Source: a virus (lineage: Duplodnaviria > Caudoviricetes). From it: a stretch of DNA of 57,143 bases. The translations under genes and the position numbers were made by a program. Each line of letters starts with the position of its first letter. Position 1 is the first letter of the stretch. The notes under the pieces were generated by a model. The model made no database searches, was not told the origin of the DNA, and saw nothing but the letters and a program-made list of their open reading frames with translations. Below, piece after piece: positions 10,001 to 37,492 of this stretch. The DNA lies in the IMG/VR virus record IMGVR_UViG_3300003886_000028, positions 1 through 57,143 of that record, one strand, 5' to 3'.

Positions 10001-13000
10001 CGCCGCGCCAGCCCCACCGGTACCACGAGCTCCAAACGCCAAACCGAGGCGGCCATTCAGCGACAAGGCCTGAGCCGGCACGTCGAGCACGCCGGCGAGG
10101 TCCATCAATGCATCGTAGGCGCTATTCAGGTCCTGCTGGCGGCGCTTGCCCTCTACGTAGTTACCGAACTGGACTCCGCGGAAGCCGAAGGTCTCGGCGA
10201 ACACTGTTGGGGTGACGTCGGCGCCATCCCGATGATCCGAGCCAACCCGCGGCGCATTCTCGGGCCGTCGATCGGCAGGCAGTTCTTTCCAGCGCTTGAA
10301 GTCCGACACCAGTGCATCATGATTTTCATCGAGGTACTTGCGAGCCTCTTTGATGTTGTCGAACTCACGCAGATCGATCCGGTCCTTGCCCAGTTTCTTA
10401 CCGATGACAAATCGCCCCGCCTTCGGTCCGCGGCGATAGCTGTAAATGCTGAATTTGACCTGCTTCGAGGCCTTGGGCTGAGTATCGATGTTGTCGAACT
10501 CGGCCTTGAAATTCCCGATTGCGGCGTCTCGGGTATTACCCTTCGCCAACTCTATCGGCCAATTGCTGAAGGCAGTCGCCTTGGCGGCACGCGATACGGT
10601 CCAGATAACTTTGGGAGGATTGTACTTTTTGCCACCAAACAGGGAATATTTACCCTCTCTGAGCCGGATACCCTTCAACGATTTGCTGTGTCCCACGGCT
10701 TGATAAAGGTCAATGCTGGCATCGAGTTCGGTACGCAGGGTCAGAAACTCGGCGTTGTTTCTCAGCTTGGCAGTAATTGTGTCTTGCGTCAGCGTGCCAT
10801 CCAACACTTGACGCGCCATTTCCCGCAGCACTTTGGTTTGTTCAACCCAGCGCTTTGCCTTCCACGCCTTTCTAGGCTTGTTGGGAACCGTGTCTCGTGC
10901 GGTGCGGATGAATGCTACAGACCACGGATCCGCGCCGGCCTCCAGCATTGTCTCGTAGTTCGGAGCCGGCCAGGATTTCGAGAGCGGGACGACCGCAACA
11001 TCCAGTTCAGCGGCTTTGGTGAGATTGTCCTGATAAGCCGCCCAGACGTGTTTGCGGGCGCCGGTCAGCACTTCCCCGAAGTCTTCGATATCTGCCGACG
11101 GCTTGGGTGTCTTCTTTGGCGCATCCGTGAGGTCCGTTTGCTGGCGGGCCTGGCTGAACAGATCATCCGGCTTGCCGGTCTCGATCGAGTCCTGTCCGGT
11201 ATTTCGGCCCGTATCGCGCTTACGCTTCTCGTCAGCGAGCGCCTGCGCCGCCACAGTGTCATCCCCGAGCAGGTCGGGCTGAGTGGCTGGTGGTGTTGAT
11301 GTGGCGGTCTCAGGGGCGCTCTGCGCCGTGAGGGTTAACTCTTCACTGGGTTCTGCAGGCGTTTCAGCACTCGCTTGGCTGCCCGCTGCAGCTTTCTGAC
11401 TCGCGGCAACGAGGTCACGGACCCCGGCGATGAATCCGGCGTCGTCGTCTTCGAATCGTGTGGCGAGTCTTTCGACCGCATCTTCGTCAATCTCCGTCGC
11501 CGTGGCGACCAGTGCTACGTCATCCGCATTTTGAGGTGTTTCGTCGAGATCCTCAAACGCGAGTTCTTCGGGCGTCGGGAAGGCTTTGGTAAGTGTGTTT
11601 CTCTCCTGGGCGACCTCAACCAGAAAATTGAAATATTCTCGCGGCTTCGTGCCGAGGTACTTACCCGCCAGTCCTTTGTCGATTATACGCTCGGTTTGAG
11701 CCTCATTGTAGTTCCCGGGACGTCCTTTCCACCAATCCGCTTTTGGCACCCATGGCGTGCGGCCAGTGACCTCACCATCCTGATCCATCAACACGCGGCC
11801 GCCAATCTCTGCCCATCCCGATTCGCCCTTCATTATTTCCAGGGAATCGCGCACCTCACTGGATATCTCACCAGCCGGCACCGGGCTTGACAAATCTGCG
11901 GTTGCTTGACTTTCCACGGCTTGCGCACTTTCAGCCAGTCCACCCTCGGCACTCGGAAACTCGGGGACTTCTTTGAGCAGCTGTGCGATCGGCGCGTCGA
12001 GCCGGATCACACGGATATCTTTGCCGGCCTCCACAGCCGCCAGCCATTGGTGGTGCCCGTCGAGAACATTGCCCTCCCTGGAGACCAGTATGGCGCGATC
12101 CCCGCCCTCGAAGGCCATGGCCTTTCGGACCTTCTTTTCGGAGAATTCGGCTTGCGTCGGTTTCAGTGATATCGCGGGCACAGTCTCCTCAACACCTGCG
12201 ATGTCGCGGGCCTTCAGGAAATTGGCCAGAGCACCGCGATGCTCGGCTTTGATTTGCGGCATTTCGGTACGGGGCACATTCAGGGAGCCGCTGGTCTCGG
12301 CAAAACTGACCCATTCATCGTCGATGCGTTCACCGCGCAAAGCATTGGCAGCACCGGATTCAGCAGTTTCAGGTGTTAATGCACCGCCGGGGTCGGCGGC
12401 TGTGTCTGCACCAGGTACACCATCCGCATCGCTTTTGTCAGTCGGGGCGGTAATGGTTCGCAGTTGCTGCTCCACCGGCTCAATGCTCGCGCCTCGTTCC
12501 GGGTCACTAGCCGGTGCTGTCGCGCCAGGTTCAGTGCCTCGTCGAACGTCATTACGAAGTTGTGGTAGCTGATCAAGGCCTGTCTCCTCTGGAGCGATGG
12601 CAGCGACCGGTGTTAGTCCTTCAACATCGAGAGCGGGCTGGGTCAGTATTTCATCCCGTGGTGGCTCAATAGGCCTCGCCGGCGTTTGGGTTGTGTCTGG
12701 CGTTTCTTCACGACCGGGCGCGGTTGGTTCGATGGTAACGGCTTCAATACCTTGGGCTTCATCGGTTTGTGGCGCATCTTTTACCTCGATTGGGGCGATT
12801 CTACCCCGTAGTGTGTCAAACGGTTCCGCAACGGTGCGGCCATCGTCGTATTGCAGTTTCGCCCCGATAACCCCGTCTTGCTCATAGGCGTCGATCACGG
12901 TGGCGGGTTCTCCGGATACCGTGATTTGAGTCCCGATTTCGGGAAATCCTGCCCGCACAAGCATTTCTGTCGCGGCCTGCTGGCCCAACGCGTCTTGCAG

Positions 13001-14320
13001 TACTGCTCTGCCGGAACTGATCAATTCGTTGGGTATCGGGCTGTCCAGGTCTTCCTGTGAGAGCGGGTCCACCTCGGTGCGCGCCCGCTCACGTTCACCG
13101 ATTGGCTGTAGCGCGATGCCATAGGCATCCGCAATGGCCGCTGGCGCGCTTCGGTTATCACGTAGAAAGTCACGTTCCGCGGTTTCTGCCTCAGTCGGCG
13201 CCTCGATGGCCTCGAGGGTCTGAAGCCGCTCATCGGCTAATTGGGCGACCTCTTCGATGGGTTTTGGGGCGCTATCGGTGTCGGGTGTTGTATCCGGCGC
13301 TGTACCGCCTGCGCCGCGCCGCCGACCTGGCAATGCCAGCGTAAACAGTGTTTCCAATATGGCACCAGTGGTGAAGCCCACGGCGCCTTCTTCAACCCTT
13401 TCCGTGGTCCACACTCCGCGCTCCGGGTCGTACAGCTTTTGGGCAACCGCGGCATTCATAATGCCGGCGAACGATTCCTGGACCGCCTCTTCAGTGCCTT
13501 GTCGAACCGCACGTGCCAAGTAGCGTTTGATTACCCCTCCGCCTACCTTATCAAGCCGGTTAAGCAGGTTACCTACCGGAATGGCTTCGGTGGTGCCAAT
13601 GATGGCGCCCAGTTTTGAGGCTTCCAGCGCGGTCGCAATATCAGCACCCGAATCTATGGCTTGTTCAAATTGGTCAACACTATTAAGCGATGACCCCAAT
13701 ACTGCCGGCGCACCATAGGTCGCCAGGGCGGATGTGCCCACTACACCTCGGGTAACTAGCGCGGCGGAAACAAACCCCAGTGCCGAACCCAATCCCTGCG
13801 GCACTTTTGAGGTCCAAAACTCATCCTGCAACGCGGGATCGACGGGAAACTTGTCGGCGATGAACTTATCGATTGCGTTGCCGGCTTTGTATAGCGCTGA
13901 TTTTTGGGCCTTTTCCGCCTGTTCTGTCCACTGCGTGCGAACTTGCTGGCGCTGTTCGGGACTGGCCGAGGTATAGCCCTCATAAAATGACGTCAACGGG
14001 TCGGCCAATTCAATGACGCCAGCTGAGCCGGCGTATTGCGTTTTTGGCCGATAGGGTTCACCCCTATCGATGCGATCAAGGTTCCGCCACACCGACGGCT
14101 CTGGAGTGGTGGCCAATGCCAAAGACTTTGGGATCCCGGATACCACGCTGCTGAACCCACGAACCAGCGAACTCGATGCGGTACGCGCGCGGCCTGGCGG
14201 CACCTCAGCACCGCTAATAGGCGTTAAACCGGTGGTGTCGAGTTCCGTCAGCCCACCCGTATCCAGGCTGTTAAGCCCGGTGGTGTCGAGTGGTTTTAGG
14301 CCGGTAAGGTCTAGTGACAT
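4034..14320 (-). CDS. giant polyvalent internal virion/injected protein (ParB-like, LPD5, LPD1, MPTase-like, MuF-C-like, LPD38)
   Basis: 3428 aa; LKPTQ..LDGHHQW (ParB-like), IEDFGEVLTGARK (LPD5), AHEWLH..REMTARAFE (LPD1), HEVIH, ELTVNFNRKG (LPD38); last of the ejection genes. Confidence 0.85.
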   Translation of the reverse strand: MSLDLTGLKPLDTTGLNSLDTGGLTELDTTGLTPISGAEVPPGRARTASSSLVRGFSSVVSGIPKSLALATTPEPSVWRNLDRIDRGEPYRPKTQYAGSAGVIELADPLTSFYEGYTSASPEQRQQVRTQWTEQAEKAQKSALYKAGNAIDKFIADKFPVDPALQDEFWTSKVPQGLGSALGFVSAALVTRGVVGTSALATYGAPAVLGSSLNSVDQFEQAIDSGADIATALEASKLGAIIGTTEAIPVGNLLNRLDKVGGGVIKRYLARAVRQGTEEAVQESFAGIMNAAVAQKLYDPERGVWTTERVEEGAVGFTTGAILETLFTLALPGRRRGAGGTAPDTTPDTDSAPKPIEEVAQLADERLQTLEAIEAPTEAETAERDFLRDNRSAPAAIADAYGIALQPIGERERARTEVDPLSQEDLDSPIPNELISSGRAVLQDALGQQAATEMLVRAGFPEIGTQITVSGEPATVIDAYEQDGVIGAKLQYDDGRTVAEPFDTLRGRIAPIEVKDAPQTDEAQGIEAVTIEPTAPGREETPDTTQTPARPIEPPRDEILTQPALDVEGLTPVAAIAPEETGLDQLPQLRNDVRRGTEPGATAPASDPERGASIEPVEQQLRTITAPTDKSDADGVPGADTAADPGGALTPETAESGAANALRGERIDDEWVSFAETSGSLNVPRTEMPQIKAEHRGALANFLKARDIAGVEETVPAISLKPTQAEFSEKKVRKAMAFEGGDRAILVSREGNVLDGHHQWLAAVEAGKDIRVIRLDAPIAQLLKEVPEFPSAEGGLAESAQAVESQATADLSSPVPAGEISSEVRDSLEIMKGESGWAEIGGRVLMDQDGEVTGRTPWVPKADWWKGRPGNYNEAQTERIIDKGLAGKYLGTKPREYFNFLVEVAQERNTLTKAFPTPEELAFEDLDETPQNADDVALVATATEIDEDAVERLATRFEDDDAGFIAGVRDLVAASQKAAAGSQASAETPAEPSEELTLTAQSAPETATSTPPATQPDLLGDDTVAAQALADEKRKRDTGRNTGQDSIETGKPDDLFSQARQQTDLTDAPKKTPKPSADIEDFGEVLTGARKHVWAAYQDNLTKAAELDVAVVPLSKSWPAPNYETMLEAGADPWSVAFIRTARDTVPNKPRKAWKAKRWVEQTKVLREMARQVLDGTLTQDTITAKLRNNAEFLTLRTELDASIDLYQAVGHSKSLKGIRLREGKYSLFGGKKYNPPKVIWTVSRAAKATAFSNWPIELAKGNTRDAAIGNFKAEFDNIDTQPKASKQVKFSIYSYRRGPKAGRFVIGKKLGKDRIDLREFDNIKEARKYLDENHDALVSDFKRWKELPADRRPENAPRVGSDHRDGADVTPTVFAETFGFRGVQFGNYVEGKRRQQDLNSAYDALMDLAGVLDVPAQALSLNGRLGLAFGARGTGGAGAAAAHFEADTVVINLTKRSGSGSLAHEWLHSMDNYFSRNRGQNDGFLSEDAVQRGEGVRPEVVEAFDGVVQAISQTSLKQRSESIDKRRTNAYWSTGREMTARAFESYIIAKLQDQGASNDYLANIVSEQYWKAEAALSMGFQNTGEAAGYPYPTPAEIPVIRAAFDHLFETIESRETATGVEMFSLRDDAPWYFSSLARAAEGLKQAKGQPDQMLAMLKKQPGVKAEEIQWTGIEEWLATQEGAVTKAEIVEYLAGNGVRVEDVTLQSSNAGLVEIFAREGYTLDNSDAEVALYLDPEGNEIEFDDLPKSLKQAIGRQMSDDFTTTKYQDHVLPGGENYREVLLTLPRREDIDPNSPGSPLASRDAGVFIDGHFDTANVLAHVRLNDRSGPNGEKVLFIEELQSDWHQTGRRKGYRSDKPLTPDDAKRFFGITDVDWAAMGPAQQLSYLEEMNSDARHVRIGKNEMVPDAPFKGNAWVELAIKRVIRMAAEGGYDQVAWTTGEQQADRYDLSKRLEYIDFEPNGSNYAVIARDRGGNIVFDRKAVKPEELEDIVGKDVAEKIINGEGAPSPRADEKTWRRLSGLDLRVGGEGMKGFYDRTLRNLFSKVTKKLDRAVKVESIGIGEGAIYEVVKDGNNWWVESLNTPRQGPFESHVEATQYIERRVDAGRESIDVHSIQITPAMREQALLGLPLFTLQPGVAGKADAIESDLKARLDKVGITDRVAVKLVDEIRNSAGSAMSGAQGRYLGRLIEVAADAPNKAWVMDHEVIHALRDIGVIRTAEWTALARAAEDRMDSVRQRYSGRNLTEQQLVEEAIADLHADWSTSQKQARGFLKTAFQRISEFLEALGNALRGAGFQSAGDIFRRIDRGEVGRRDGVAANEKRQRLTLLADTRRIYESRIDELFAGEKPDPTGVRILDRSDVLAMHGIDDGPVFLVESKVSASRFNHRLTAEDWKKVPNWLENPTLVFESETQPGRLVFIAPDPVGESLVRIIAAPRPNGGTTLIVSVYEDGRKSPLKRWVEDGLLRYIDQRKTLDLSGRSGLRLPGLQEVKGYRDKVLTRKDLVKYREDNSPEGRLALQPGDFNPNRPRKSVETAPEPTPDRQSNLFLSEAIFRFQDKFNYLYKAQKTAAKERGLEELAEPEDAYLSELRYHGMAGAAIEDFQRDHVDPLVEKISESGLDIEDVESYLHARHAPEANAQLKRINPIDPQKDLNIGEDGDKSRGLKDNDGLSGMTNEAASTIIADFEASGDLQKLEEIAALTDAITASQRKLLVESGLETAKTVAKWESTYEFYVPLQREGFGDTPPQRGKGFSVTGRQKRRAGSKREVVSILSHLTAQHEATLIRAEKNKVAQAMLRFAQNNPNEELYAVDKVEFKATFDAEGLVVYKPHRGFQFADNVLVVKVAGKDHTVTFNQRSHEAMRIAHAMKSLGANNSGPIINVLTRVMRYLAAINTGYNPEFIISNFLRDIQTAGYNLSSTEVDSLKWTIIKDVGKAWRGIRAFQSQKDHPWAKEFDEFRKAGAQTGWLGLYGDISQKEDRLRNRVEELRGDVPLLKVKRSVRALFEFIENENTAVENAVRLSAFVHARRAGISVGKSARLAKELTVNFNRKGDYGQIMNALWLFYNASIQGSARIIVGAAKSPKVRVLIGATIVFATFLDIMNRAMGGDDEDGKNRYDKIPDHVKERNLIFMLPGGKGDYVKIPLPWGYNVFHVMGQVTGEAATKKNFKASAGALRVAASVAGSFNPIGGDASLGQIISPTITDPIVQWGENKDWAGRPLRPEGNPFDVDAPESQQYWNSVREPSRWVAEKLNELTGGNEFRSGTVDINPEMIDLIIDNVTGGAGRFIADTVSTPIKALKGDEIETYEIPLLRKLYGQPGLGTLYQEYYRNADAVRITEKEAKHYIETKNIDAELELKEARWGEYSLIGERRKSDSYLMKQRKERNRIDESDLSDAEKKRQISNIGDEIKDTMNQFNRLYNERVNDQ

Positions 14321-14329
14321 TGCGTGGCC

Positions 14330-15193
14330 TTATTTTACGTAGAGTTTTCCGTCGACCTCAATGATCGTTCCGGGCCGGGCAGAATCCTTAAACCAATTGA
14401 TGTCGGCCTGTGATGATGCCTGGTAAGGATCGGCCTCGGTACCGCTGCCTGTTGGTGCTCCCGCTTGCTCGGGGGGGGCACTTGTACGATCTTGCGGTGC
14501 GCCGGTTTGGGCTGAACCGGTTGATGCCGGAGCGGTGCCACCTTTCATTTCGTTGTAAATCTCAAGCGTCTTTTTCTGAATTGCCTCGGCACGGTTACCG
14601 CCATAACCCTCAAAATCTGTTTTGTCGCGGCTGAAGTACCCGGCCTGATCTGAGGCCCATTTTTCGGCGAGTCTCGCCGACTCGCGGTACTCGGAGCTTT
14701 CAACGTCGGTTTTAGAATTACCACCAGTTTGTGGCAAAACACGCTGTGCGAGATCCGGACGGCCCGCGGCGATCAACGATGCCGCAACCCCCTCCCAATC
14801 AGTAGTTTCGCCTTCAAACGATCCTTTGCCGCTGGTGTTGGGTTTAATCGCGATATCGATTTCACGTTTGTCGTCAACCGAGAGTCCGGTGTTGTTCTGG
14901 TCCTTCTTCCGCCCGCTCTTGATGTCGAGGTTTTTGGTCTCGCCACCCTGAGTTATCCCGATCAGATTACCGGCCTCATCGGGAACGACACTGCTCAACA
15001 ATCCCTTCCTGTTATTGAACTGCGTGGCATCCCTGGCTGTGGCGCGATCGTCGCGGGATTTTTCCCGGGACGACTGATTCTCCTCCCGGAGCCGCAACAT
15101 AGCTTCTTCACGCTTTGCTCGGGCGCTTTCGAGCATGCCTTCACCAAGACCGGCGAGCAGACCCCCAGCGATACGTTTCGCGGTACGACCCAT
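14330..15193 (-). CDS. putative internal virion/ejection protein
   Basis: GGLLAGLGEG N-terminus, helical charged composition, position in the ejection cassette. Confidence 0.6.
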   Translation of the reverse strand: MGRTAKRIAGGLLAGLGEGMLESARAKREEAMLRLREENQSSREKSRDDRATARDATQFNNRKGLLSSVVPDEAGNLIGITQGGETKNLDIKSGRKKDQNNTGLSVDDKREIDIAIKPNTSGKGSFEGETTDWEGVAASLIAAGRPDLAQRVLPQTGGNSKTDVESSEYRESARLAEKWASDQAGYFSRDKTDFEGYGGNRAEAIQKKTLEIYNEMKGGTAPASTGSAQTGAPQDRTSAPPEQAGAPTGSGTEADPYQASSQADINWFKDSARPGTIIEVDGKLYVK

Positions 15194-27456: not shown

Positions 27457-27692
27457 TAGCTTTCAATCCCGTCGCGGGTTTCTACCAGACCCAGAAGTTC
27501 TTTGAGTTCTTCGACGGCACCACGCTGATTCTCGGTGTCCGACATATCCAGTCCCACCACTTCCAGATTGCCGCGGCGCATCTTAAGGCGACCATTAGCC
27601 CAATCGCGAATTGCCAACCAGGTATCACTAGCAACGTCAATGCTGTGTGGTGCCTGCTCTTCAGCCAAAATACTAGAAATATCCGCCACCAC
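27456..27692 (-). CDS. small head-assembly protein after portal
   Basis: W..I...L....RG...LKELL pattern typical of small post-portal genes. Confidence 0.6.
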   Translation of the reverse strand: MVADISSILAEEQAPHSIDVASDTWLAIRDWANGRLKMRRGNLEVVGLDMSDTENQRGAVEELKELLGLVETRDGIES

Positions 27693-29898
27693 TGGGTCCT
27701 TGTTGTTGCGTAACCGCTGCTTCGGTAGCGATCATACGTTCCTTGCTACCTCGTTCCTCGCGAGCATCATCCAATTTTGCACGGAGTTCGTCAAGTTTCA
27801 TGTTGTTCACCCCCGCGAGCTTGATGAGTTCTGTTTCTCGATTCAAGTTTGCTAACGCGATTCGCCCGTCCCATTCCATTTGCTTTGCGTTCATCGCAGT
27901 TTCGAGCTTTATCATTTCCAGATCGGGCTGGGGCGGCGATTTAGCGGCCTTAGCCTCATCCTGAGCTATTTCTTCGTTGGTCTTCACCAGATCGTTGGCC
28001 GGAATCATCATGGTCTGTGCGAGCCGGCGCAGTCCGAGTAATCCCTCTTCCTTCAAATATTTTCCGAGCGTGGGATGATTCGCGAAATTTCCGAGGAATA
28101 ACAGCAGGTTTGCGCTTTGGAGTTCGCGAACCAACAGTACCGAGGTACCGCGCGCATCCACTTCGAAATCACCTTTGATCTGCTCTTTCTTACTGAATTG
28201 CATCAGGAAGTCGTACATCCGACGAATCGTGGGCGTGGTGATATCGTCGTCCCAGTTTTTCACAATTCTCCGAAACACAACGTTCGCCGAGTTCATTAGC
28301 AGTGACATGCCCTGGGCAGTCTTAGTTACATTCGCGCCCTGCTCGCCCTGAGCAATAACGGGCATGCTCGTTTCCTCATCGATATTGCGTTTGCACAGTT
28401 CGATGAGGGCCGATAGTTCTTGTAGGTGGCTATCTATATTAATGACCTCAAACGGTTTTTCGTTCTTGGGTGCTCCTGATTTTCGTATCCATATTTTTCG
28501 CGGCTCCAGCGCCCACACCCCATTCTCAGGCTCTATAATTTTAGGGTTAACAACAATTTGTGGACCCGACGCGAGGCCAGCGTTGTCCATCAGTGCCCGC
28601 CATGCCGCCGCCATAGCGGCCTGCGGGTCTCGCATGATGTAGGGGATACCAAACCCAAATATGCTGGCATCGTCCTTTTCGAGGCAAAACACGCTGTAGA
28701 TCGGATCACCGCTATCGAGATAGTGGAGTCCAAACTTCAGCAATTCGCCCTGGCAGAACCAGACAACGGCTTCGACTTCATCGAGCGGGTCAACCTCAAT
28801 GTCTTCGAGATCACTAAGAATGCCCTCGTTCTGACTCAACGCCGCGATTTCCTTCATTTCGTCCATGGACAGCGGGCCGTGATATTCCCAAACGTGGTAT
28901 CGATCGGTCACGCTTTCGTTGTACGACCCCGTGATTGATCGTAGATCAGCCAGGTATGTCGGGGTGGTGCTATTTGCGCCCGCAATGATGAGTCGACGAA
29001 TCGCGTCCTTATCAAAGCCGGGACGGCGTGAGAGTCGGCGCAGTTGTTTCTTGTTCAGCATGTGGCGTTCGTAATTGCCCTCGCTGTCCTCAATTTTAGT
29101 GGCATCCATATCGGGGAAGAAGTTCCACGGGTCGGTACGCCACAACACGGGTCTGGTGTCATCGACCTCGTTCATCGAATATTCGGTCTTGCCCTCAATA
29201 ACCTCGCCATTCTCATCAAGCAGGTTCTGCAACTTCCAGGCACGCCGCGTGCGATCGCCAATTACCGGGCCTTTGATAATGCCGGTCCCCATTTTGCAGG
29301 CGTCATCAATGATTTCGCGGGCCTGAGCCGCGTAGTTGGCTTGGCGCAGATGGTCGTCAATCTCTTCTTCCATGGCCCTGGCGCGCTTTTTAGCCTCATC
29401 CATGCGGGCCTGGACCGACTCGGCGGCTTGTGCCGAACCTTCAGCAGCCGCTTTCAGTTGAGGGTTTTCGGGATCCGCTGCAGCCGCAATTTCAGCGGTG
29501 GCGGCGGCTTGCGCTACTTCTTCTGCCTCAACGGTGAGTTCCGGGACCGGTGTTGGGCCTATTCCCCAGTTGCGATCGTCGGTCGGAAACAGCATGTCCG
29601 ATAGCCGCGACGCCATAGCGTTTGTCTTCGGGCGCGTCGAGTTTATGAACAACATTGATTTTCTTGCTTTTTTGAACTCTTCTTTCAGGCCAGTACTGTA
29701 TCTGCCATGAAATTGAGCCAGATCATCGAGCCAGCGTTTTTCTACAATTTCCCGCTCACCGACGCGCCGCTCCGCCTCTTTGTCGAGACGGCCCACGATG
29801 GCGGCGAGGCGTTCCGCGGTGTCTTTTTTCTGGCTATCGTCGTCGGGATCGTTGAACGATTCGCCGTATTCTGATTCAGGCTTTGGAGTGGATGCCAT
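27673..29898 (-). CDS. portal protein
   Basis: 741 aa; TRPKT, GTGIIKGP, DPWNFFPD, FGFGIP, TAQGMSLLM, IKGDFEVDARG. Confidence 0.9.
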   Translation of the reverse strand: MASTPKPESEYGESFNDPDDDSQKKDTAERLAAIVGRLDKEAERRVGEREIVEKRWLDDLAQFHGRYSTGLKEEFKKARKSMLFINSTRPKTNAMASRLSDMLFPTDDRNWGIGPTPVPELTVEAEEVAQAAATAEIAAAADPENPQLKAAAEGSAQAAESVQARMDEAKKRARAMEEEIDDHLRQANYAAQAREIIDDACKMGTGIIKGPVIGDRTRRAWKLQNLLDENGEVIEGKTEYSMNEVDDTRPVLWRTDPWNFFPDMDATKIEDSEGNYERHMLNKKQLRRLSRRPGFDKDAIRRLIIAGANSTTPTYLADLRSITGSYNESVTDRYHVWEYHGPLSMDEMKEIAALSQNEGILSDLEDIEVDPLDEVEAVVWFCQGELLKFGLHYLDSGDPIYSVFCLEKDDASIFGFGIPYIMRDPQAAMAAAWRALMDNAGLASGPQIVVNPKIIEPENGVWALEPRKIWIRKSGAPKNEKPFEVINIDSHLQELSALIELCKRNIDEETSMPVIAQGEQGANVTKTAQGMSLLMNSANVVFRRIVKNWDDDITTPTIRRMYDFLMQFSKKEQIKGDFEVDARGTSVLLVRELQSANLLLFLGNFANHPTLGKYLKEEGLLGLRRLAQTMMIPANDLVKTNEEIAQDEAKAAKSPPQPDLEMIKLETAMNAKQMEWDGRIALANLNRETELIKLAGVNNMKLDELRAKLDDAREERGSKERMIATEAAVTQQQGPSGGGYF

Positions 29899-29899
29899 G

Positions 29900-30643
29900 T
29901 TAGTAGGCCGTCCTGGGGTCAGTGGCCGTTTGGCCGTGAATTAAGTGCTGCTGAACCGGCACTGGTATAGCAATAGCTTTGCCGGAAAGCACGATATACC
30001 GCATTGTATCCATCAGATGATCAAAGACATTGACAACATTACCTTTCTCGTCTCGCCGGTACAAACGGTACTCGGCCTGCCAATTCATTAGGGTTTTGAA
30101 TATCTTGAGGCGGCCCGTGGAGAGCAGGTTCCAAACGTCGTAAATCCCAGCCTCCAGCGCATTCGCTGACTCGGTCAGGTTCAGTCCGAGATCCCGATAC
30201 GTGACCAAAAGCTGTTCACCGTCTTTTTGACTGCGCCCTCGCGCCGCGGGATCAATTAATCCCGGTATCCACTCGCCGCGTGCCTGGATTGCGGTTACGT
30301 GAATCGAGGGTTCGGCCTTGCCACGGTAGTGTTCGGTGTACATATACCAGCAGTCGGACTCTCGATCGAGAGCGGCCCAAAGCGCGGCGGTGCGGTTCCA
30401 GCCCACATCCAACGCATAAACGCGTGGCCAATGAGCGGGTATCGCAAACGGGTCAACCAGAATTTCCGACAATTGAATCGGGTAAATCGCGCCAGCACCG
30501 AGGCTTGGCTCGCCTTTTGAGCGCGCGTCTCGTAAGTACTCTGGCGTGGCCTCCATGAGTTCACGCTTGGTCTTCTCGTCGAGATGGGGCACATCGTCCC
30601 AACTCGCGGTGACCAGATACTTCGATTGTGATATTTCAGGCAT
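29900..30643 (-). CDS. terL: terminase large subunit, C-terminal RNase H-like nuclease half
   Basis: WDDVPHL, ALDVGW, IDPAARGRSQ, YRRDEKG, DHLMDTMRY. Confidence 0.9.
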   Translation of the reverse strand: MPEISQSKYLVTASWDDVPHLDEKTKRELMEATPEYLRDARSKGEPSLGAGAIYPIQLSEILVDPFAIPAHWPRVYALDVGWNRTAALWAALDRESDCWYMYTEHYRGKAEPSIHVTAIQARGEWIPGLIDPAARGRSQKDGEQLLVTYRDLGLNLTESANALEAGIYDVWNLLSTGRLKIFKTLMNWQAEYRLYRRDEKGNVVNVFDHLMDTMRYIVLSGKAIAIPVPVQQHLIHGQTATDPRTAY

Positions 30644-30805
30644 AAAGCGGTTTCCGTCGCTTACCGGTACAAAACTTTCCCGACCTCACCGGTTTACCCA
30701 TGACGCGCCCGGCAGAAAAAAGCAAATACGGGGTTAGGCACATTTAGGGAGCGACAGCATTACAGGTAGCACCGCGAGACTACCCTGGAGTCGAGGTCGC
30801 CCCAG

Positions 30806-31201
30806 TTATGAGCAATCCGCATCGCAAAACGCGACCCGGAGCGTGCCTTCGCGCACGTCGTTATTGGATAGCCCGACCCAAAACCCGCCGGCGGGAATGC
30901 GGAAGTCGCTAGTCGTTAGGCCTGTCGTCGGACTCGTACCCAGCTGCATATGCATGACCTCATCGCAGTAAATCCAGAGATATCGTGTACTCGATGTAAA
31001 CGCACTGGCGATTGCGGCTGGCGCAGTCGCCGTGACGACCTGCGTCCTCGGTGTCGGCGCCGTGACTAGCGGTATATTAATCCGATTGCCACCCAGGTCG
31101 GTGATCAGGCTCGTGAACTCCGAGACCGAGCAGGTCGCGGCCAATGCCTGAGATAACGGCAACAGCGCCAGCAGTAGTGTTGATAAAATCAATCGCTTCA
31201 T
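30806..31201 (-). CDS. secreted beta-rich protein
   Basis: GGAG RBS; signal peptide MKRLILSTLLLALLPLSQALA; four Cys. Confidence 0.75.
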   Translation of the reverse strand: MKRLILSTLLLALLPLSQALAATCSVSEFTSLITDLGGNRINIPLVTAPTPRTQVVTATAPAAIASAFTSSTRYLWIYCDEVMHMQLGTSPTTGLTTSDFRIPAGGFWVGLSNNDVREGTLRVAFCDADCS

Positions 31202-31219
31202 TATTTCTCTCCAGCGGGG

Positions 31220-31453
31220 CTAATCCCAGTTATCAGGAAATCTAAACAAATTTTTCAGGTCGTTGTCACTACTCACCGGGGAGGGCGGGTCGGGTGGCAG
31301 ACACGACTCATCCAGGTACGAGGCTTGCATATAAGCGGGACCAAAATATCCGCCAGCGACAAAGCAGTCTGCCTCAAGGCTGGCATTGCCAACCGAAGAA
31401 AACAATACCAGTCCGGTGGCGGCCAGGGCTACGGTGCTACTACGCCTTCGCAT
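31220..31453 (-). CDS. small putatively secreted protein
   Basis: basic N-terminus, hydrophobic core, GNA cleavage-like site, two Cys. Confidence 0.5.
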   Translation of the reverse strand: MRRRSSTVALAATGLVLFSSVGNASLEADCFVAGGYFGPAYMQASYLDESCLPPDPPSPVSSDNDLKNLFRFPDNWD

Positions 31454-33292
31454 ACTGCGTTCTCCACAATGATGTAGTTGTCGGTGCTTACCGCGGCGGT
31501 CATTGGTCTGAACAGCACGGTATCGCTGGCGGCCGTGAAGCTGTAAATGCAGCTGGTCTGGCCCGCCGCAGCACCCGAGGTCATGACGATCGCGTTGCCC
31601 TTCCAGTAGTCGTTACCTTGCGTGAGCGCGGCGTCAACACAGGTCGTGGTGGATCCAGAATCACACGTTCCGGTGCGTAGCGTGTAACCGTTCAATATGG
31701 AAACTGTGGTCACCGCTCCAATCGTGTTGTTTTCACCGTTATATCCGGTGCCATCAAAAAACCGTTCCGCGTTATCGGCGGCAAACGCATCACCAGAGAT
31801 AGCCCCAACATCAACCGTGTCTGTAGAGGCATTGAAATACGTGTCGGACGGGACGGATCGTGCGATAAACTCAGCATCTGTTGGCGAGTCATAGGCGAGC
31901 AATGCTGCATCCATTTCTGATCGCATCTGGACCGTGCTGAGATTGTTCAGGTTACCGATGATGTTGCCAGCAGTACCCGCACCGTAAGCGCCTGGCAGCG
32001 CCGTCAACCACGGATCTCCGGCCGAGGCGGCACCGTCCAACAGCAGATCGAGCCTGCCGCCATCTGCCCACTCGGTTTGCAGTATGTTTGTATCCGCAAC
32101 GATTGCGGAGTTTGTATCCATTTCAATTCGAATTTGCTCAACCGTAGGAGATGAGCCGCCAGCACCGGTAAGCCACGCTACATCACCCCGGGCGCGTATC
32201 GCGGCGAGGCTATGGGTGCCGGTCAGGAACCCTGCGCCCTCAATACCCACAAACCTTGTGGGATAGTCGTCAGTCTGTAGTTCGTTTGTATCGGCCAGGA
32301 CCGCATCCAGGTCTGTGCAGAGCTGAAATTCGAGTGTGCCGGCAACCGGAGAAGCACACGGAAGCGCGGCCCATGCCGCGGTGAAATCGTTAGCGGTTTG
32401 CAGTGGCGTTGAGATTGCGGTGCCATTCCAGAACTGGGCATCAGCTGGAACAAACTCGCCAAACGAACCTGTAGCCGTATGACCCGCCCGAAGCTCATCC
32501 CACACTCCATCAGCTATTGCGGCTACCGTGGGGGCAGAACCACCTGCACCTGTAGTCCATGTCCCCGCCCCACCGGCAGTGGTTTGAACCAGTATGGCGT
32601 TGATGTCGGCGCTATTATTATTAGCGGTTTGAGCCGTGCCGGCAACAGCCGCGATATCAACACGTCCGGTTGTCGCTGTAATCGACAAATCCGACCAGTT
32701 AGTCGGTGCTGACACAGCCAATATTGCTGAGTTAGTGCCGCGCATCGGAGCGGTGTCGACACCGTCCGTACCGCGCATATTGGCTACGGTCGTGACATTC
32801 GCGACAGTATCTACCGCGGGATCGAAATAATCAGCGGCCAGTACCGTCCGCAAGATCAAGTCGGCATTTATCAATCCATCGTAGTCAACCAGAGCGGTAT
32901 CGGCTTCGGAATTTACTTGCGCTGCCGTTAGCGAACCAACAGCCGATGCTGCGTGAAAGTTGTCATAAACCGACTCTTCATACACATAGCAGCGCGTGAA
33001 ATAGGGTGCAGCGCCAGCAACCTGCACATCAATACTCAAAATTCCTACCGTTGCGGTATCCGTAGCGTCAAGAACAATTTGGTATTTCCCAATCTCGTCG
33101 TGCGTCGCCCCGCCCGATATCCGTGTTGGCAATTGTCAGCGCCGTTTCAGCCGTTACCCCGTCCGTTGAGTCCACAAACGGTCCCAGCAGCAATTCCTGA
33201 CTGGCCGTAGACTGACGTAACGCACAATCGGATGCTAACGCCGGAATCGACAACAACGATGCGAATACCGCAATAGTTATTCGTTTGATCAT
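31429..33292 (-). pseudogene. tail-fibre/adhesin-like protein with signal peptide, frameshifted at ~33116
   Basis: 5' ORF (signal, LRQSTASQ..GPFVDSTDG..TIANTDI) continues in another frame as SGGATHDEIGKY..LDATDT; Ala/Thr/Asp-rich fibre repeats. Confidence 0.7.
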
Positions 33293-33294
33293 TA

Positions 33295-34050
33295 TCAATT
33301 TTCCCCTAAAAGCTGTCGGTTGTAGTGAAATATCGCATTATTTGTGGCGCTTACTACAAATCCTCTAACCACAACTGTTGTCGCTGTCCAATTCTCGCTC
33401 TCGCTCAGCGTAAATGCGCTGGGATCATCAGTATCCGCCGCCAAATCCCGACGCGCCGAGAATATACGACACGACGCGTTGACTGTATTGTTTACAATTG
33501 TTGATGTCTGCCCGACCGTATAATCTGTAGGCCAGGTGCTGACGCTTGAATCATCATCTGAAACGCCCACTATGGTAATGAACGTATTGTCATCGACACC
33601 CCAACTCGCTGTTACCGCAGTTGGATCAGGATTGGTATTGCCCCCATTCGCGTAGACCGAAATTTCTGGTGGTGTCGTGCCGTGCCAATTCTCAATGCGA
33701 TAAACCTGTCCGGCCGTCTCTGTGGCGCCGAACTGAAGGCTGAACGATATTGTCGTACCACCCTCAGTTCCGTCCGATATTCGATAACCCGTCCACGTAG
33801 CAATCCCACTTCTGAGGCCCTCAGCGAGTAATGTCCAACCTGCCGGCACGGTTATCGCACCAACGCTGTTCCCGGTCGATAAGGTCACAATTAACAAATC
33901 GCCGCTATTAACCGTGGCTGGATTGTCAATTATCGCGGGGTTTCCACCCGTCGTATTCAACGTTTCGGTTATCGTGATGCCTGTCGGGAAATTCGCGTAG
34001 ACGGCTCCCGACAGGAGGACTGTTACCAAGAGTATTAAGCGTTTTCTCAC
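33295..34050 (-). CDS. secreted beta-sandwich tail-type protein
   Basis: GTG start overlapping upstream TGA; signal peptide ending VYA; GDLLIV..PAGWT motif. Confidence 0.7.
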   Translation of the reverse strand: MRKRLILLVTVLLSGAVYANFPTGITITETLNTTGGNPAIIDNPATVNSGDLLIVTLSTGNSVGAITVPAGWTLLAEGLRSGIATWTGYRISDGTEGGTTISFSLQFGATETAGQVYRIENWHGTTPPEISVYANGGNTNPDPTAVTASWGVDDNTFITIVGVSDDDSSVSTWPTDYTVGQTSTIVNNTVNASCRIFSARRDLAADTDDPSAFTLSESENWTATTVVVRGFVVSATNNAIFHYNRQLLGEN

Positions 34051-36141
34051 GATCCCGGTTTCCACAGAATTGATCCGCCGTCACCCGACCCGCCGCCGCC
34101 ATTCGAGGCTGCACACCACACCACGCCATAGCGCGGGATTGCTGCGGGTGTCCATGATCCACCGTCGTTCGTACTGATGGGCAAATTGTCCCAACACGGA
34201 TGCGTGAATGACTCTAACGTCCACTGCGAGGAGAGCGTGGTTCCCGGAACATCATTGTTGGTCCAGACCCTGTTACCGCGACGCTCCAACAACATTACTG
34301 TTCTATCGTTACGTGGATCGATCAACAGGTGGGCACCAGCATTGATGTCGCTCTGTACGCTAATTGGGAGCGGTACGAGCTGCGGTGTCGCGCTCGGATT
34401 GATCCCATAGCTGGCCGGAATGACAATACCGTCCAGCGAGACGTCGCGGCCTGAGCCGAAAAACACGACGTCATGGCCGGGAATATACAAACTGCTGTTG
34501 TGGTTTCGGTTACCGTAGGGCGGTCCCAAACCAAAATTAGCGCCCTGTGTCCAGGTTTGAGCGAGTTTGTCGAACCACGCAAAACGCAGTCGAACCACGC
34601 AAAACGCACTGAACTGTACGCGAACAGCCCTGGCCTGCCTGGCCCCATTAGATTTGGATGATACGCCGCACCTGGATTAGGGCTATCCGTTGACCAAATG
34701 TCGAACGCCGCTAACGGCAAATCAGTCCACGTGTCGGCAGATCGTGAATAGTGTCGGATCGTGCGCGTTCGGACGGGTGCTGCGGTGTGACCGTCCTCGA
34801 CATGGTAGTAATCGCCCGGATCATCCGTGTGATCAAATGCTGCAGTCCAAATATGCCCAACCTTGCCTGGCGTGACATCCAAATTGGGTGAGCGCCATGT
34901 ATTTGTTTGTTCATCGTAAATAAAGTGTCTGGCCGCTCCCCCACTCTGCGCTTTGCCCATATACTGCAATTCACGATTCTCGTTATCCCAAAACGCGGTG
35001 CGGTTCTGCCACGAAATATCGAACGCCTGGCTCTGCGGATTAAACGCAATCGCATCGGCAGTCCACGCACCGTTTGCCAGTGCCGCTGCGGCCAGTTCCA
35101 GCACAGAGCCGCTAAATGTACTCGGCGGCGGGATGTATTGTTTGGAGAAAATCAACTGATCGTATTTTTGCCAGAAATCAGTCGCGATGTTAAATCCATT
35201 GTGAAATGTGCCTAAGATTGTTGCGTTCCACGCATGTGGGTCAATTTCCTGATAATCAATCACTTCTGATTGGGCATCGAATATTGTCGTATACGTTTTC
35301 TCACCTGCGCGTACACGCCTGACAACAATTCGGGTGGTCGCGGCGAGTTCATCACCCGGTCCGACTTGGTACAGGTAATGGATCCATTCATCGGTAATGT
35401 GCGGAACGTTGGGTACAACAGTCGTCGTAGACTGCCCACCGGCTTTGTACAAATCGAAATCAACACTATTTTCGTAGTTGGTAACCAGTTCCTGCGCGGT
35501 CAGAGAACGTTGGGTTCTTGTTAGATATTTTATTTTTCCACCGTCAATCCCGACCGGTATTCGCCGCGGGTCTAACTTCATCGCCATTTGAAAATAGAAT
35601 ACATCCATGTGCCCTCAGATGCCGGACCATAGTCACCACCGACCCACGTCTGAGTTTGATTTCCATCCGGCACCGGCGCCCATGTTCGCAACGTTAAGTT
35701 GCCGCCATCGGCCGGATCGTTAGTGACTTTTCCGTTACCCGGTGCAGCCATCGGTGAAAACGGACGCCACCAATCTTTTCCGTCGGTTGAGCCTGCCGCT
35801 CTAAATGCCTGTAGAGACCCGCCTCCTGTTAGAAAATCGTTAGTGTCTCTGAATATAGAGTTTTGCGGGCGCTGCAATCCGGGCGCATCAAGTGGGTCAT
35901 TTCCATAACCATTCGTCCAGCGGAACTGAGCAACTTCTGCGTCATCGCGAAAATCATGATTCCAAACCACGCCGTCCAGATTTGAGCGGTATTGCCAGTC
36001 ATTTTCCGCCGCGCCTGTCGGGGGTGGAGGCGGCTCCACCATGATCAATCCCGCATCGGCATCGCCGATCAACGCACGGCCCACCGCCATTAGGATGGCT
36101 AGGAATACCACTCCTATGCTGAGTATTTTGATTTTTTTCAT
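34047..36141 (-). pseudogene. ~690-aa secreted lyase/lectin-like plus Kelch-like propeller protein, broken by two frameshifts
   Basis: three overlapping ORFs; joined by +1 nt at ~35607 and by removing a 20-bp tandem duplication at 34569..34608. Confidence 0.7.
34569..34608. repeat. perfect 20-bp tandem duplication
   Basis: GTCGAACCACGCAAAACGCA x2. Confidence 0.95.
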
Positions 36142-36162
36142 AGACGGGTATTTCCGGGTCGG

Positions 36163-36990
36163 TCAGTTCAGGATGTCCGGCCGCTGCTCCGCCGGCAAAA
36201 ACGACAAAACAACTTCGGAGAGGCCGGATAGCGGGGTAAACGTTAGCAGGGTAATGCCGTTCAACGTGGCGGTTCGGATCAATGCTTCATTATAAACGTC
36301 CATTGGTGGTTCCTCGTCGAACCAGATTACGTGCTTGCCGGTACCCTGAAATGCTTTTCGGCCCTGATCATAGCTTTTTTGACCCAACAATGACCAGCCC
36401 CCACTGACGTGTCGGATCGGAACCGTGTCCACAACGTTTTGTACACCCGATCGCCAAATCGGCTGGCCAATCAGGTCACCAGGTATAACGCCCGTGCCAT
36501 CGACACCCCTGCGTCCACCTCGCCACGTGATCTCTCCGAGCAGATTTAACTGGATAATGTCTCGGGTCGTCTCGTACGTATCGCCAGCAACCCAGGCACT
36601 AATTGGGCTCTCGAAGCGCTTTCCCTCCCACCAGTGCGGGTATAAGCCGGTGAGGTGACACGACGTCTCATAGCCACCACCACCCAGGGTTTTTCCGATG
36701 CGGTTTGCGCACATGAAGCAGCGCTCGCGGTGCGTCGCGCCGACACTGAAGAAGTCGAGGTGTTTTTGGTACCGGTCCCGGGCATAGATTATCTGATTCG
36801 GCTCAATCAGCCCGCCCAGTATTGAGGGTCCTGTCCATATCGTGGTTTCGTCGGGAAACAACGAATAAAACAGGCGGGTCGCCTGAAACGAGTCTTTTTT
36901 GCGAAACAGTTCAAGCTGGCGGCGCTTGTCCGCAAGAGTGCTCCCGCCGCTGGGCCTAACCTGCTGTATCAGGCCTGGCACTAGAATCAA
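36163..36990 (-). CDS. terL: terminase large subunit, N-terminal ATPase half
   Basis: Walker A ANRIGKT, FQG, Walker B IWFDEEPP, coupling motif TFTPLSG; start codon uncertain. Confidence 0.9.
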   Translation of the reverse strand: MILVPGLIQQVRPSGGSTLADKRRQLELFRKKDSFQATRLFYSLFPDETTIWTGPSILGGLIEPNQIIYARDRYQKHLDFFSVGATHRERCFMCANRIGKTLGGGGYETSCHLTGLYPHWWEGKRFESPISAWVAGDTYETTRDIIQLNLLGEITWRGGRRGVDGTGVIPGDLIGQPIWRSGVQNVVDTVPIRHVSGGWSLLGQKSYDQGRKAFQGTGKHVIWFDEEPPMDVYNEALIRTATLNGITLLTFTPLSGLSEVVLSFLPAEQRPDILN

Positions 36991-37492
36991 TGCCGAAGCG
37001 CTGCAATTCCCTGTCGACCTCCTCTTCAGTCATCATATCGATGTCCTGATATTTGATTGGGCCACCGCCCCTACCCGTGACCTCGCGACGGTTCGTGTGC
37101 ACATCGCCAACCTCCTTGGCGATGCGCTCCAACATATCGGCCATTGCCACGAAATTCTTATTGCCCTTGAACGCCCGACTCGCGTTGGCGAGCTGGCGTA
37201 CCCGTACCGCTTTATTTGCCTCGGGCACGAATTTGTCGATGTGTTCCAGGAAATTCTTACGAGTCCGCTCATAGAGCTCTGCCCATTTCTTCGCACACCG
37301 CGCGCCGGCCTGTTTAGTGTGGTCGTATTTCTCCACATTCTGCGGAGTGATCTTTAGGCCGAACTCAGTGTAGACCGCATCGGCCGTTTCCTGGGGTGTT
37401 GCATAACACGCAACCTGTTGAACGATAAAGGTTCTGTGCACGCTGGTAAGTATGTTCCTGCGGCGCCTTTTTGCCTTCTTTTTGGACGCCAT
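36956..37492 (-). CDS. terS: terminase small subunit (DUF2280-like)
   Basis: FIVQQVACYATP, YD.TK.AG, LE.IAKEVG, EVTGRGGGPI. Confidence 0.8.
   Translation of the reverse strand: MASKKKAKRRRRNILTSVHRTFIVQQVACYATPQETADAVYTEFGLKITPQNVEKYDHTKQAGARCAKKWAELYERTRKNFLEHIDKFVPEANKAVRVRQLANASRAFKGNKNFVAMADMLERIAKEVGDVHTNRREVTGRGGGPIKYQDIDMMTEEEVDRELQRFGIDSSARPDTAG

Follow-up and report, generated by a model that had tools for sequence, protein, structure and literature searches.

A large terminase subunit gene in two halves, broken inside the ATPase domain and separated by a variable gene block, in a podovirus-like phage genome and its relatives

The packaging region of a 57,143-bp linear virus record (IMG/VR record IMGVR_UViG_3300003886_000028; hereafter the window, meaning the whole stretch of DNA analysed, in whose numbering positions are given) was found to carry the large terminase subunit, TerL, as two separate genes, designated TerL-N and TerL-C, which lie 5519 nucleotides (nt) apart on the minus strand. 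The same break was observed in 45 of 85 viral or phage loci and in 38 of 71 loci from bacterial genomes, with invariant catalytic motifs and ratios of non-synonymous to synonymous substitution (dN/dS) mostly between 0.05 and 0.2. Judged from the sequences, the split is a real and inherited feature, and the split gene is most likely functional. We consider it quite probable that TerL works here as two chains, as the initial annotation had proposed, and that the gap between its genes is a hot spot for accessory genes and homing endonucleases.

The two-gene terminase and its distribution

The packaging region, read along the minus strand, is made up as follows (amino acids, aa; open reading frames, ORFs):

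36956..37492, minus strand: small-terminase-like gene, directly upstream of TerL-N and overlapping it (Pfam DUF2280, E 1e-28; phrog_546, E 5e-39)
36163..36990, minus strand: TerL-N, 275 aa (Pfam Terminase_6N, E 4e-10; PHROGs phrog_31467, E 4e-76)
30644..36162: gap of 5519 nt between the TerL-N stop and the TerL-C ATG, with eight co-oriented ORFs
29900..30643, minus strand: TerL-C, 247 aa (Pfam Terminase_6C, E 4e-5; phrog_5653 and phrog_2, 'terminase large subunit')
27673..29898, minus strand: portal gene, starting 2 nt past the TerL-C stop codon (Pfam SU10_portal, E 6e-10; phrog_332, phrog_1216)

The ORF list agreed exactly with the earlier description of an ATPase half, a nuclease half adjoining the portal gene and 5519 bp between them. 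The order of small terminase, large terminase and portal is also that of EBPR podovirus 1, in which the small terminase (TerS) gp40 occupies the position equivalent to that of the DUF2280 gene. TerL-N reads ...TFTPLSGLSEVVLSFLPAEQRPDILN at its C-terminus, after the C-motif helix, and is closed by a stop codon at 36163-36165, while TerL-C has its own ATG at 30643 and begins MPEISQSKYLVTASWDDVPHL. TerL of the T4/P22 type is one polypeptide; the window has this stop codon and new start codon instead, and no second TerL copy was found across the whole record. The 261-position profile phrog_31467, which matches TerL-N and is labelled 'unknown function', appears to be an unannotated family of split-terminase N halves.

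The claim that both halves are intact held when their motifs and their selection were assessed. TerL-N comprises a RecA-like ATPase core with Walker A (G99 K100), Walker B (D225 E226 E227) and a C-motif (TFTP, 250-253), and these residues were invariant or nearly so in an alignment of 38 split N halves. TerL-C carries an RNase H-like nuclease in which D79 was invariant and D208 nearly invariant (alignment of 35 split C halves). The ASCE ATPase and the RNase H-like nuclease of T4/P22-type TerL are therefore both present. Values of dN/dS (Nei-Gojobori) between the window and locus L009 (loci carry L numbers) were 0.055 for the N half and 0.056 for the C half, with synonymous sites saturated, and 0.05-0.2 in most other pairs of split loci. 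Both values point to strong purifying selection on each half, and the start of TerL-C itself (MPE[IV]S...) is conserved over many loci.

Related phages were surveyed for the same split, as the initial annotation had suggested. A scan of viral contigs with the N half gave 122 relatives, the best 80 of which were kept; together with the window and six loci from a phage collection these made 87 sources, of which two lacked one half in the examined stretch, leaving 85 classified loci. TerL was split at the same loop in 45 of these and fused in 40. Spacers in the split loci (N stop to first aligned C residue) ranged from -5 to 7433 nt, with 18 of 30 nt or less, 13 of 31-300 nt, five of 301-1000 nt and nine above 1000 nt. 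The shortest consisted mostly of overlapping or abutting stop and start codons (GTGA, TAATG, TGATG, TAAATG), which is typically the mark of coupled but separate genes. In bacterial genomes at least 571 relatives were found, the best 79 loci were kept and 71 were classified: 32 were fused and 39 were not one ORF, 38 of the latter being split at this site, with a spacer of 30 nt or less in 22. Hosts of split loci include Azospirillum, Fulvimarina, Sphingopyxis, Acetobacter, Novosphingobium, Acidovorax, Halomonas and related genera; among the culturable species whose prophages share the split are Azospirillum agricola, Sphingopyxis flava, Vreelandella aquamarina and Kushneria aurantia. Because there are near-duplicates among the loci, none of these counts is a count of independent events.

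Eight of the bacterial-genome loci had no C half in the examined stretch. Four of the eight had little DNA past the N half; the others (L092, L101, L141 and L110, in genomes G001-G004) had 8-10 kb of downstream DNA and no C half there. Such orphan N halves may be relics, or the two halves may lie very far apart.

Independent gene calls gave a similar division. A search of 1.84 billion cluster representatives returned 2660 matches at E <= 0.001, and the best 150 of these comprise 71 that stop at the split point, 51 that run on for at least 180 residues (the fused size), 17 of intermediate length and 11 that escaped classification. Seventeen of the 150 best N-half relatives stop at the split point yet have over 150 additional residues. 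Six long N-half relatives were tested (P0163-P0167 and P0178, four of them from these 17) and all six match intein, Hint or LAGLIDADG families, some of the matches lying below the Pfam cut-off, so that an intein can also reside in one of the half-genes of a split TerL.

The only split locus among the six read from the phage collection was that of MW202785, a circular 40-kb metagenomic genome, where the two coding sequences are each annotated 'large terminase protein'. The other cultured-phage matches each fall under a terminase annotation, consistent with one chain as far as match tables tell. In Xanthomonas phage DES1 (L003, OK624832, 3785-6118) TerL is fused at the site studied here; its annotation breaks TerL at a point further upstream, where a 165-aa hypothetical ORF separates the two pieces.

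A tree of 79 rows (six others were left out because their coverage was short and two because one half was missing; IQ-TREE quick search, LG+G4) placed the window in a clade of 13 loci, all of them split (SH-aLRT support 96), whose spacers measure between 0 and 7.4 kb. The loci closest to the window are L009 (76% identity, spacer of about 7.4 kb) and L011 (188-nt spacer). On these sequence grounds the split is judged old and inherited rather than accidental. Seven changes between the split and fused states were counted by parsimony, and branches with good support require at least three of them, so that TerL has switched between the two states several times, whether the gene was cut anew or its pieces were fused again. 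The two halves do not share one history throughout. A clade of L019, L029, L030, L046, L033, L044 and L032, picked after the concatenated tree had been seen, had a support of 100 in the C tree and was rejected by the N data (approximately unbiased (AU) test, p 5e-5), and between L067 and L079 the synonymous divergence (dS) of the N and C halves differed (0.196 versus 0.031). These differences fit recombination at or near the gap and suggest that half-genes are exchanged between phages.

Position of the break in sequence and fold

The window halves were aligned with intact TerL, as had been proposed, using one-chain relatives (EBPR podovirus 1 gp39, CV-1-33, two Manatee Spring phages and L027; alignment A1), and the break mapped cleanly to one loop. 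TerL-N ends nine residues past a conserved FLP, TerL-C begins seven residues ahead of a conserved Y-x-V-x-A-x-W-DDVPHL, and in the fused relatives a variable loop of about 15 residues joins these two motifs. The N tail (9 aa) and the C head (7 aa) of the window thus add up to roughly the loop of the fused forms. Nothing has therefore been lost or gained at the break, which leaves no room for split-intein fragments or a docking domain.

The initial annotation had set the cut in the linker between the ATPase and nuclease domains, and here its reading did not hold. The match of TerL-C to the P22 nuclease domain (4dkw, E 6e-18) starts only at residue 48. In fused relatives the Terminase_6N match extends to about residue 293 and the cut maps to about 235-242; residues 4-59 of TerL-C correspond to Terminase_6N positions 158-213, a match that is weak by itself (E 0.022). 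An AlphaFold2 (AF2) model of the fused relative L027 (mean predicted local distance difference test score, pLDDT, 79) has the C-motif strand at 215-220 and a helix at 228-233 before the cut, which falls in a loop at 235-239 with pLDDT below 50; past it come a strand at 243-248, helices at 258-267 and 270-278, a second weak loop at 282-286 and then the nuclease.

Crystal structures, whose ranges on the model are given here as first and last aligned residues only, divide it at the second loop. The ATPase-only structure of P74-26 (4znl) covers residues 32..283 (Z 20.5, root-mean-square deviation 2.6 Å, 210 residues) and that of T4 gp17 (2o0h) residues 19..282 (Z 14.5), while the nuclease-only structures of SPP1 (2wc9), G20c (5m1f), P74-26 (5tge), Sf6 (5c12) and RB49 (3c6a) begin at 282-287. 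The model also matches 4dkw (Z 25.7) and Sf6 gp2 (PDB 4idh, Z 17). A sequence search of the PDB with the N half gave no match. From the model and these structures, the true hinge between ATPase and nuclease is at about residue 283, and the natural cut is about 47 residues upstream of it, inside the ATPase domain.

TerL-C residues 1-47 thus correspond to the last beta-strand and two helices of the ATPase domain, with the nuclease from residue 48, and to speak of an ATPase gene and a nuclease gene is only approximately right. In P74-26 the name lid subdomain is given to this part of the ATPase domain. Since the last strand and two helices are on TerL-C, TerL-N alone is an incomplete ATPase domain, and the two chains would therefore have to reassemble by fragment complementation.

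Under the mechanism proposed here, the large terminase would be made as two proteins from two genes of one late operon: TerL-N, supplying the RecA-like ATPase core, and TerL-C, supplying the last ATPase strand, two helices, the hinge and the RNase H-like nuclease. The cut itself lies within the ATPase domain, in a surface loop that is flexible. Most likely, the chains would complement each other as non-covalently associated fragments of one TerL-shaped unit, which would then act on the portal like an ordinary TerL. We infer that the two chains work together from evolutionary evidence alone. The gap would have become a hot spot in which accessory genes and homing endonucleases come and go.

The gap and its contents

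The gap of the window contains eight co-oriented ORFs, read as seven genes, which overlap or lie no more than 21 nt apart except for 162 nt before TerL-C:

35578..36141, minus strand: cargo ORF 1, 187 aa, signal-like N-terminus, starting 21 nt past the TerL-N stop
34047..35608, minus strand: cargo gene 2, overlapping ORFs of 428 aa and 183 aa, one frameshifted gene
34569..34608, minus strand: 20-nt unit in two exact tandem copies, which shifts the frame of cargo gene 2 (RFAWFD encoded twice, in two frames)
33295..34065, minus strand: cargo ORF 3, 256 aa (251 aa in the record's gene call), signal-like N-terminus, two tandem beta-sandwich halves
33068..33298, minus strand: cargo ORF 4, 76 aa, signal-like N-terminus
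31429..33132, minus strand: cargo ORF 5, 567 aa (532 aa in the record's gene call), repeat-rich, no signal-like N-terminus
31220..31453, minus strand: cargo ORF 6, 77 aa, signal-like N-terminus
30806..31201, minus strand: cargo ORF 7, 131 aa, signal-like N-terminus, weak likeness to the last ORF of the L009 spacer (E 5e-4)
30644..30805, minus strand: 162-nt non-coding stretch before TerL-C, partly conserved with L009 7958-8128 (alignment A5)

None of the eight ORFs had a Pfam or PHROG match at E <= 0.01, and neither an intein nor a homing endonuclease was detected in the window, in agreement with the initial observation that the gap of the window has no recognisable homing endonuclease or intein motif. 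The same annotation had described co-oriented signal-peptide genes: all eight ORFs are co-oriented, and a signal-like N-terminus was found in five only (187, 256, 76, 77 and 131 aa), each with two or three K/R followed by a 12-aa stretch of mean Kyte-Doolittle hydropathy of at least 2.18. By this simple measure the hydrophobic N-termini fit signal peptides or membrane anchors. The gap of this phage is filled by five small genes with signal-like N-termini, one gene for a repeat-rich phage protein and one that is freshly frameshifted. As the cargo is co-oriented and tightly packed, it is probably co-transcribed with the packaging genes.

The 20-nt duplication in cargo gene 2 may have arisen recently by mutation, may act as an on/off switch or may be an artefact of assembly. 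For the 428-aa ORF a weak beta-propeller (Kelch/BNR) resemblance (Atlas scores up to 0.82, template modelling (TM) scores below 0.5) is a lead and not a finding. The AF2 model of the 256-aa protein is all-beta (pLDDT 85, predicted TM score 0.82); compared with the PDB it gave no Foldseek match at E <= 0.001 and no clear match with VIA (best Z 5.8). This protein has 40 homologues, 11 of which carry PF18998, and homologues of its gene were not found in the viral-contig collection or the phage collection. The 567-aa protein belongs to a large unnamed family on phage-sized contigs (1265 homologues at E <= 0.001), for which no functional family name was found among the best 120 of the 1265. It has internal repeats in common with P0010, is about 33% identical to a 745-aa protein of the L009 spacer, and matched only unnamed viral clusters in the Atlas search. 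A 38,993-bp contig carries homologues, 76% and 57% identical, of two of the window cargo genes. Our best guess, held with low confidence, is that the cargo comprises envelope or surface-directed proteins and a fibre-like protein.

RNA folding of the non-coding stretch before TerL-C, for which only two sequences were available, was no better than that of shuffled sequences (z 0.43 and -0.89), and promoters and terminators were not enriched over shuffles, with nothing predicted in the 162-nt gap. G+C content falls to 0.48-0.52 in parts of the cargo block, against about 0.55 in its flanks.

Spacer content varied between relatives, and the following was identified:

L010 spacer: Tad2-like anti-Thoeris domain (E 5e-23)
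L088 spacer: Dam methylase (E 1e-22)
L041, L086 and L093 spacers: N4 gp49/Sf6 gp66 family
L041 spacer: RyR domain
L086 spacer: HNH endonuclease directly ahead of the C half (HNH, E 5e-6; phrog_1035, E 7e-20)
L123 spacer, 13800-14393: ORF with weak HNH matches, whose start nearly repeats the 14 N-terminal residues of the TerL-C that follows
L136 spacer: Cpn10-like (GroES-like) domain
L114 spacer: DUF1643
L018, L047 and L118 spacers: helix-turn-helix proteins
L009 spacer: 775-aa Laminin_G_3 (lectin-like) protein
L093 spacer: weak beta-helix match

Many further spacer ORFs of the relatives had no match. Unrelated families thus occupy different loci between the same flanks, the pattern of an accessory-gene (moron) hot spot, and with the wide range of spacer lengths this bears out the proposal that the linker position acts as a landing site for cargo. 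A homing endonuclease is found at the same site in L086 and, weakly, in L123, though none is present in the window; the L123 ORF looks like the footprint of an endonuclease insertion at the start of the C half. A putative relic of an AP2-type endonuclease in a 46-aa ORF of the MW202785 spacer was dropped, as it had no Pfam support.

A different arrangement was observed in a Halomonas-group clade, where a conserved ORF of 73-86 aa exactly fills the TerL gap and overlaps the stop and start codons of both neighbours:

Halomonas-group gap ORF: L067, 2777-2995; L079, 2245-2463; L127, 10618-10848; L128, 10618-10836; L129, 10702-10959

It has no Pfam match and could be a third partner or a regulator.

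Elsewhere the window has a podovirus-like gene set, with a major head protein, a scaffold-like protein, a tail fibre, an endolysin, several methyltransferases and a giant protein, and its structural genes are intact. The giant protein, a 3428-aa ORF at 4034-14320 on the minus strand, resembles giant phage proteins whose function is unknown (phrog_616, E 1e-257), and one of its segments is endolysin-like.

Alternative explanations and significance

Several observations weigh against a working two-chain TerL or weaken the case for it. The record is linear with an estimated completeness of 91%, the Shine-Dalgarno-like sequence ahead of the TerL-C ATG is weak by eye, and the frameshift in cargo gene 2 may reflect decay or an assembly error. 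One bacterial-genome locus (L148) is broken at another place, and both split and fused loci include near-duplicates (four identical pairs; L089 repeats L010). The N halves of L010 and L016 gave a dN/dS of 0.48, the C halves of the window and L011 (dS saturated) and of L067 and L079 (dN zero) gave no usable value, and the clade in the AU test was a post hoc choice. When the C half was sought genome-wide in G001-G004 none was found in three of the four, and in the remaining genome the only copy, 38% identical, lies over 100 kb away from the N half, apparently on the same contig; some relatives therefore look degraded.

It seems unlikely that the halves work apart, TerL-N alone serving as the motor and TerL-C as a free-standing nuclease, with no stable complex between them. 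Many spacers measure kilobases, so that coupled synthesis is not required, the N and C halves partly differ in history, and phi29 gp16, by analogy, packages without a working nuclease. However, TerL-N would then have to act as an incomplete ATPase domain whose last strand and two helices are on the other chain, tail and head together equal the fused loop with no new docking or capping segment, and the genes overlap or abut in 40 split loci. A dead terminase, disrupted by the 5.5-kb block in a decaying phage or prophage so that the halves are relics, is improbable. The fresh frameshift in one cargo gene, the orphan N halves and the incomplete linear record would suit it, but the halves are intact with all catalytic motifs and a dN/dS of about 0.06 against L009, a relative of the same layout; the break point is identical in 83 loci and older than the divergence of the 13-member clade, and the structural genes of the window are undamaged.

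We regard it as very improbable that one chain is restored by a group I or II intron, a split intein, ribosomal bypassing or frameshifting. Some N halves of relatives do contain inteins, and a possible bypassing of short gaps is reported for the ter genes of Streptomyces phages (PMC10732093). Against this, a search for RNA families, within the reach of Rfam, which does not extend to divergent introns outside it, gave no match at the gathering score in the whole window and none even at E <= 1 in 29800-37100, so that no group I or II intron was detected. A Pfam search of both halves for Hint or intein domains found none, the ends of the halves have no extra residues, the gap is full of ORFs and the TerL-C start is conserved over many loci. 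That the assembler joined the cargo block into terL is scarcely credible: the source is indeed a metagenome-derived contig, but the independent contig L009 shares the layout, related C-proximal spacer genes and the partly conserved stretch before TerL-C, and both junctions coincide exactly with the break point of dozens of other loci.

A functional two-chain TerL, the preferred reading, has partial counterparts in known systems. One-chain P22-type TerL (P22 gp2, Sf6 gp2) is of the same family by sequence and fold and has the same order of TerS, TerL and portal; the window differs in having two genes, a cut within the ATPase domain and 5.5 kb of genes between them. Friedrich et al. in 2007 reportedly described an essential enzyme gene, nrdA of Aeromonas phage Aeh1, left by a homing endonuclease in two ORFs whose products still work together. 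The HNH genes directly before the C half in L086 and L123 recall such genes in pieces, whereas the gap of the window has no endonuclease and is taken up by kilobases of other, unrelated genes, and an entire clade shares the split. In N4-like phages zero to eight spacing genes, HNH endonucleases among them, lie between the RNA polymerase genes RNAP1 and RNAP2 (PMC5418858, available text). These too are linked genes with variable inserts, but the enzyme is another one and in that text is not presented as cut through one domain. Selfish elements favour terL as a target, and relatives of the N half carry LAGLIDADG inteins. In Jug phages terL is interrupted by group I introns or inteins (PMC12880540, available text); there the interruptions are removed to give one chain, whereas nothing suggests removal in the window.

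The initial annotation had noted that an earlier description of the split in this clade would lower its novelty. In the literature covered, which did not include subscription journals, neither a domain-level two-gene TerL of this kind nor the split of this clade and its position in the fold was found described. The exception is one sentence on the Arthrobacter cluster AT phages KellEzio and Kitkat, which have two TerL-related genes, 4 and 10 (PMC5513430, available text). These phages, compared here by description only, belong to an unrelated siphovirus lineage, and the remark comes with no mapping of the break, survey or mechanism in that text.

It seems rather doubtful that the cut is itself a selected device, in which the two essential and conserved half-genes would serve as fixed recombination arms with an assured late-expression slot and the gap as a mobile platform by which anti-defence, DNA-modification and surface or host-range genes would pass between phages. 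A two-chain TerL may also change how TerL-sensing immune proteins of the Avs type see the enzyme; Avs3 bound to a terminase is represented by PDB 8dgc, and TerL-sensing immunity is treated in PMC11564622 (available text).

Models of the packaging motor treat TerL as one chain in which the ATPase core, the lid and the nuclease move against each other. Here a natural cut lies between the ATPase core and the last strand and helices, long kept in many lineages, several of them prophages of culturable bacteria. If it works as proposed, a split TerL would be a direct handle on the covalent links that the motor needs and a natural test of why TerL is usually one chain. For annotators, 'truncated' terminase ORFs can be halves of a working enzyme. 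The TerL gap is a specific and easily located place of accessory-gene accumulation, one spacer having a Tad2-like anti-defence gene, and would therefore be relevant to research on phage genome plasticity as well as on packaging motors.

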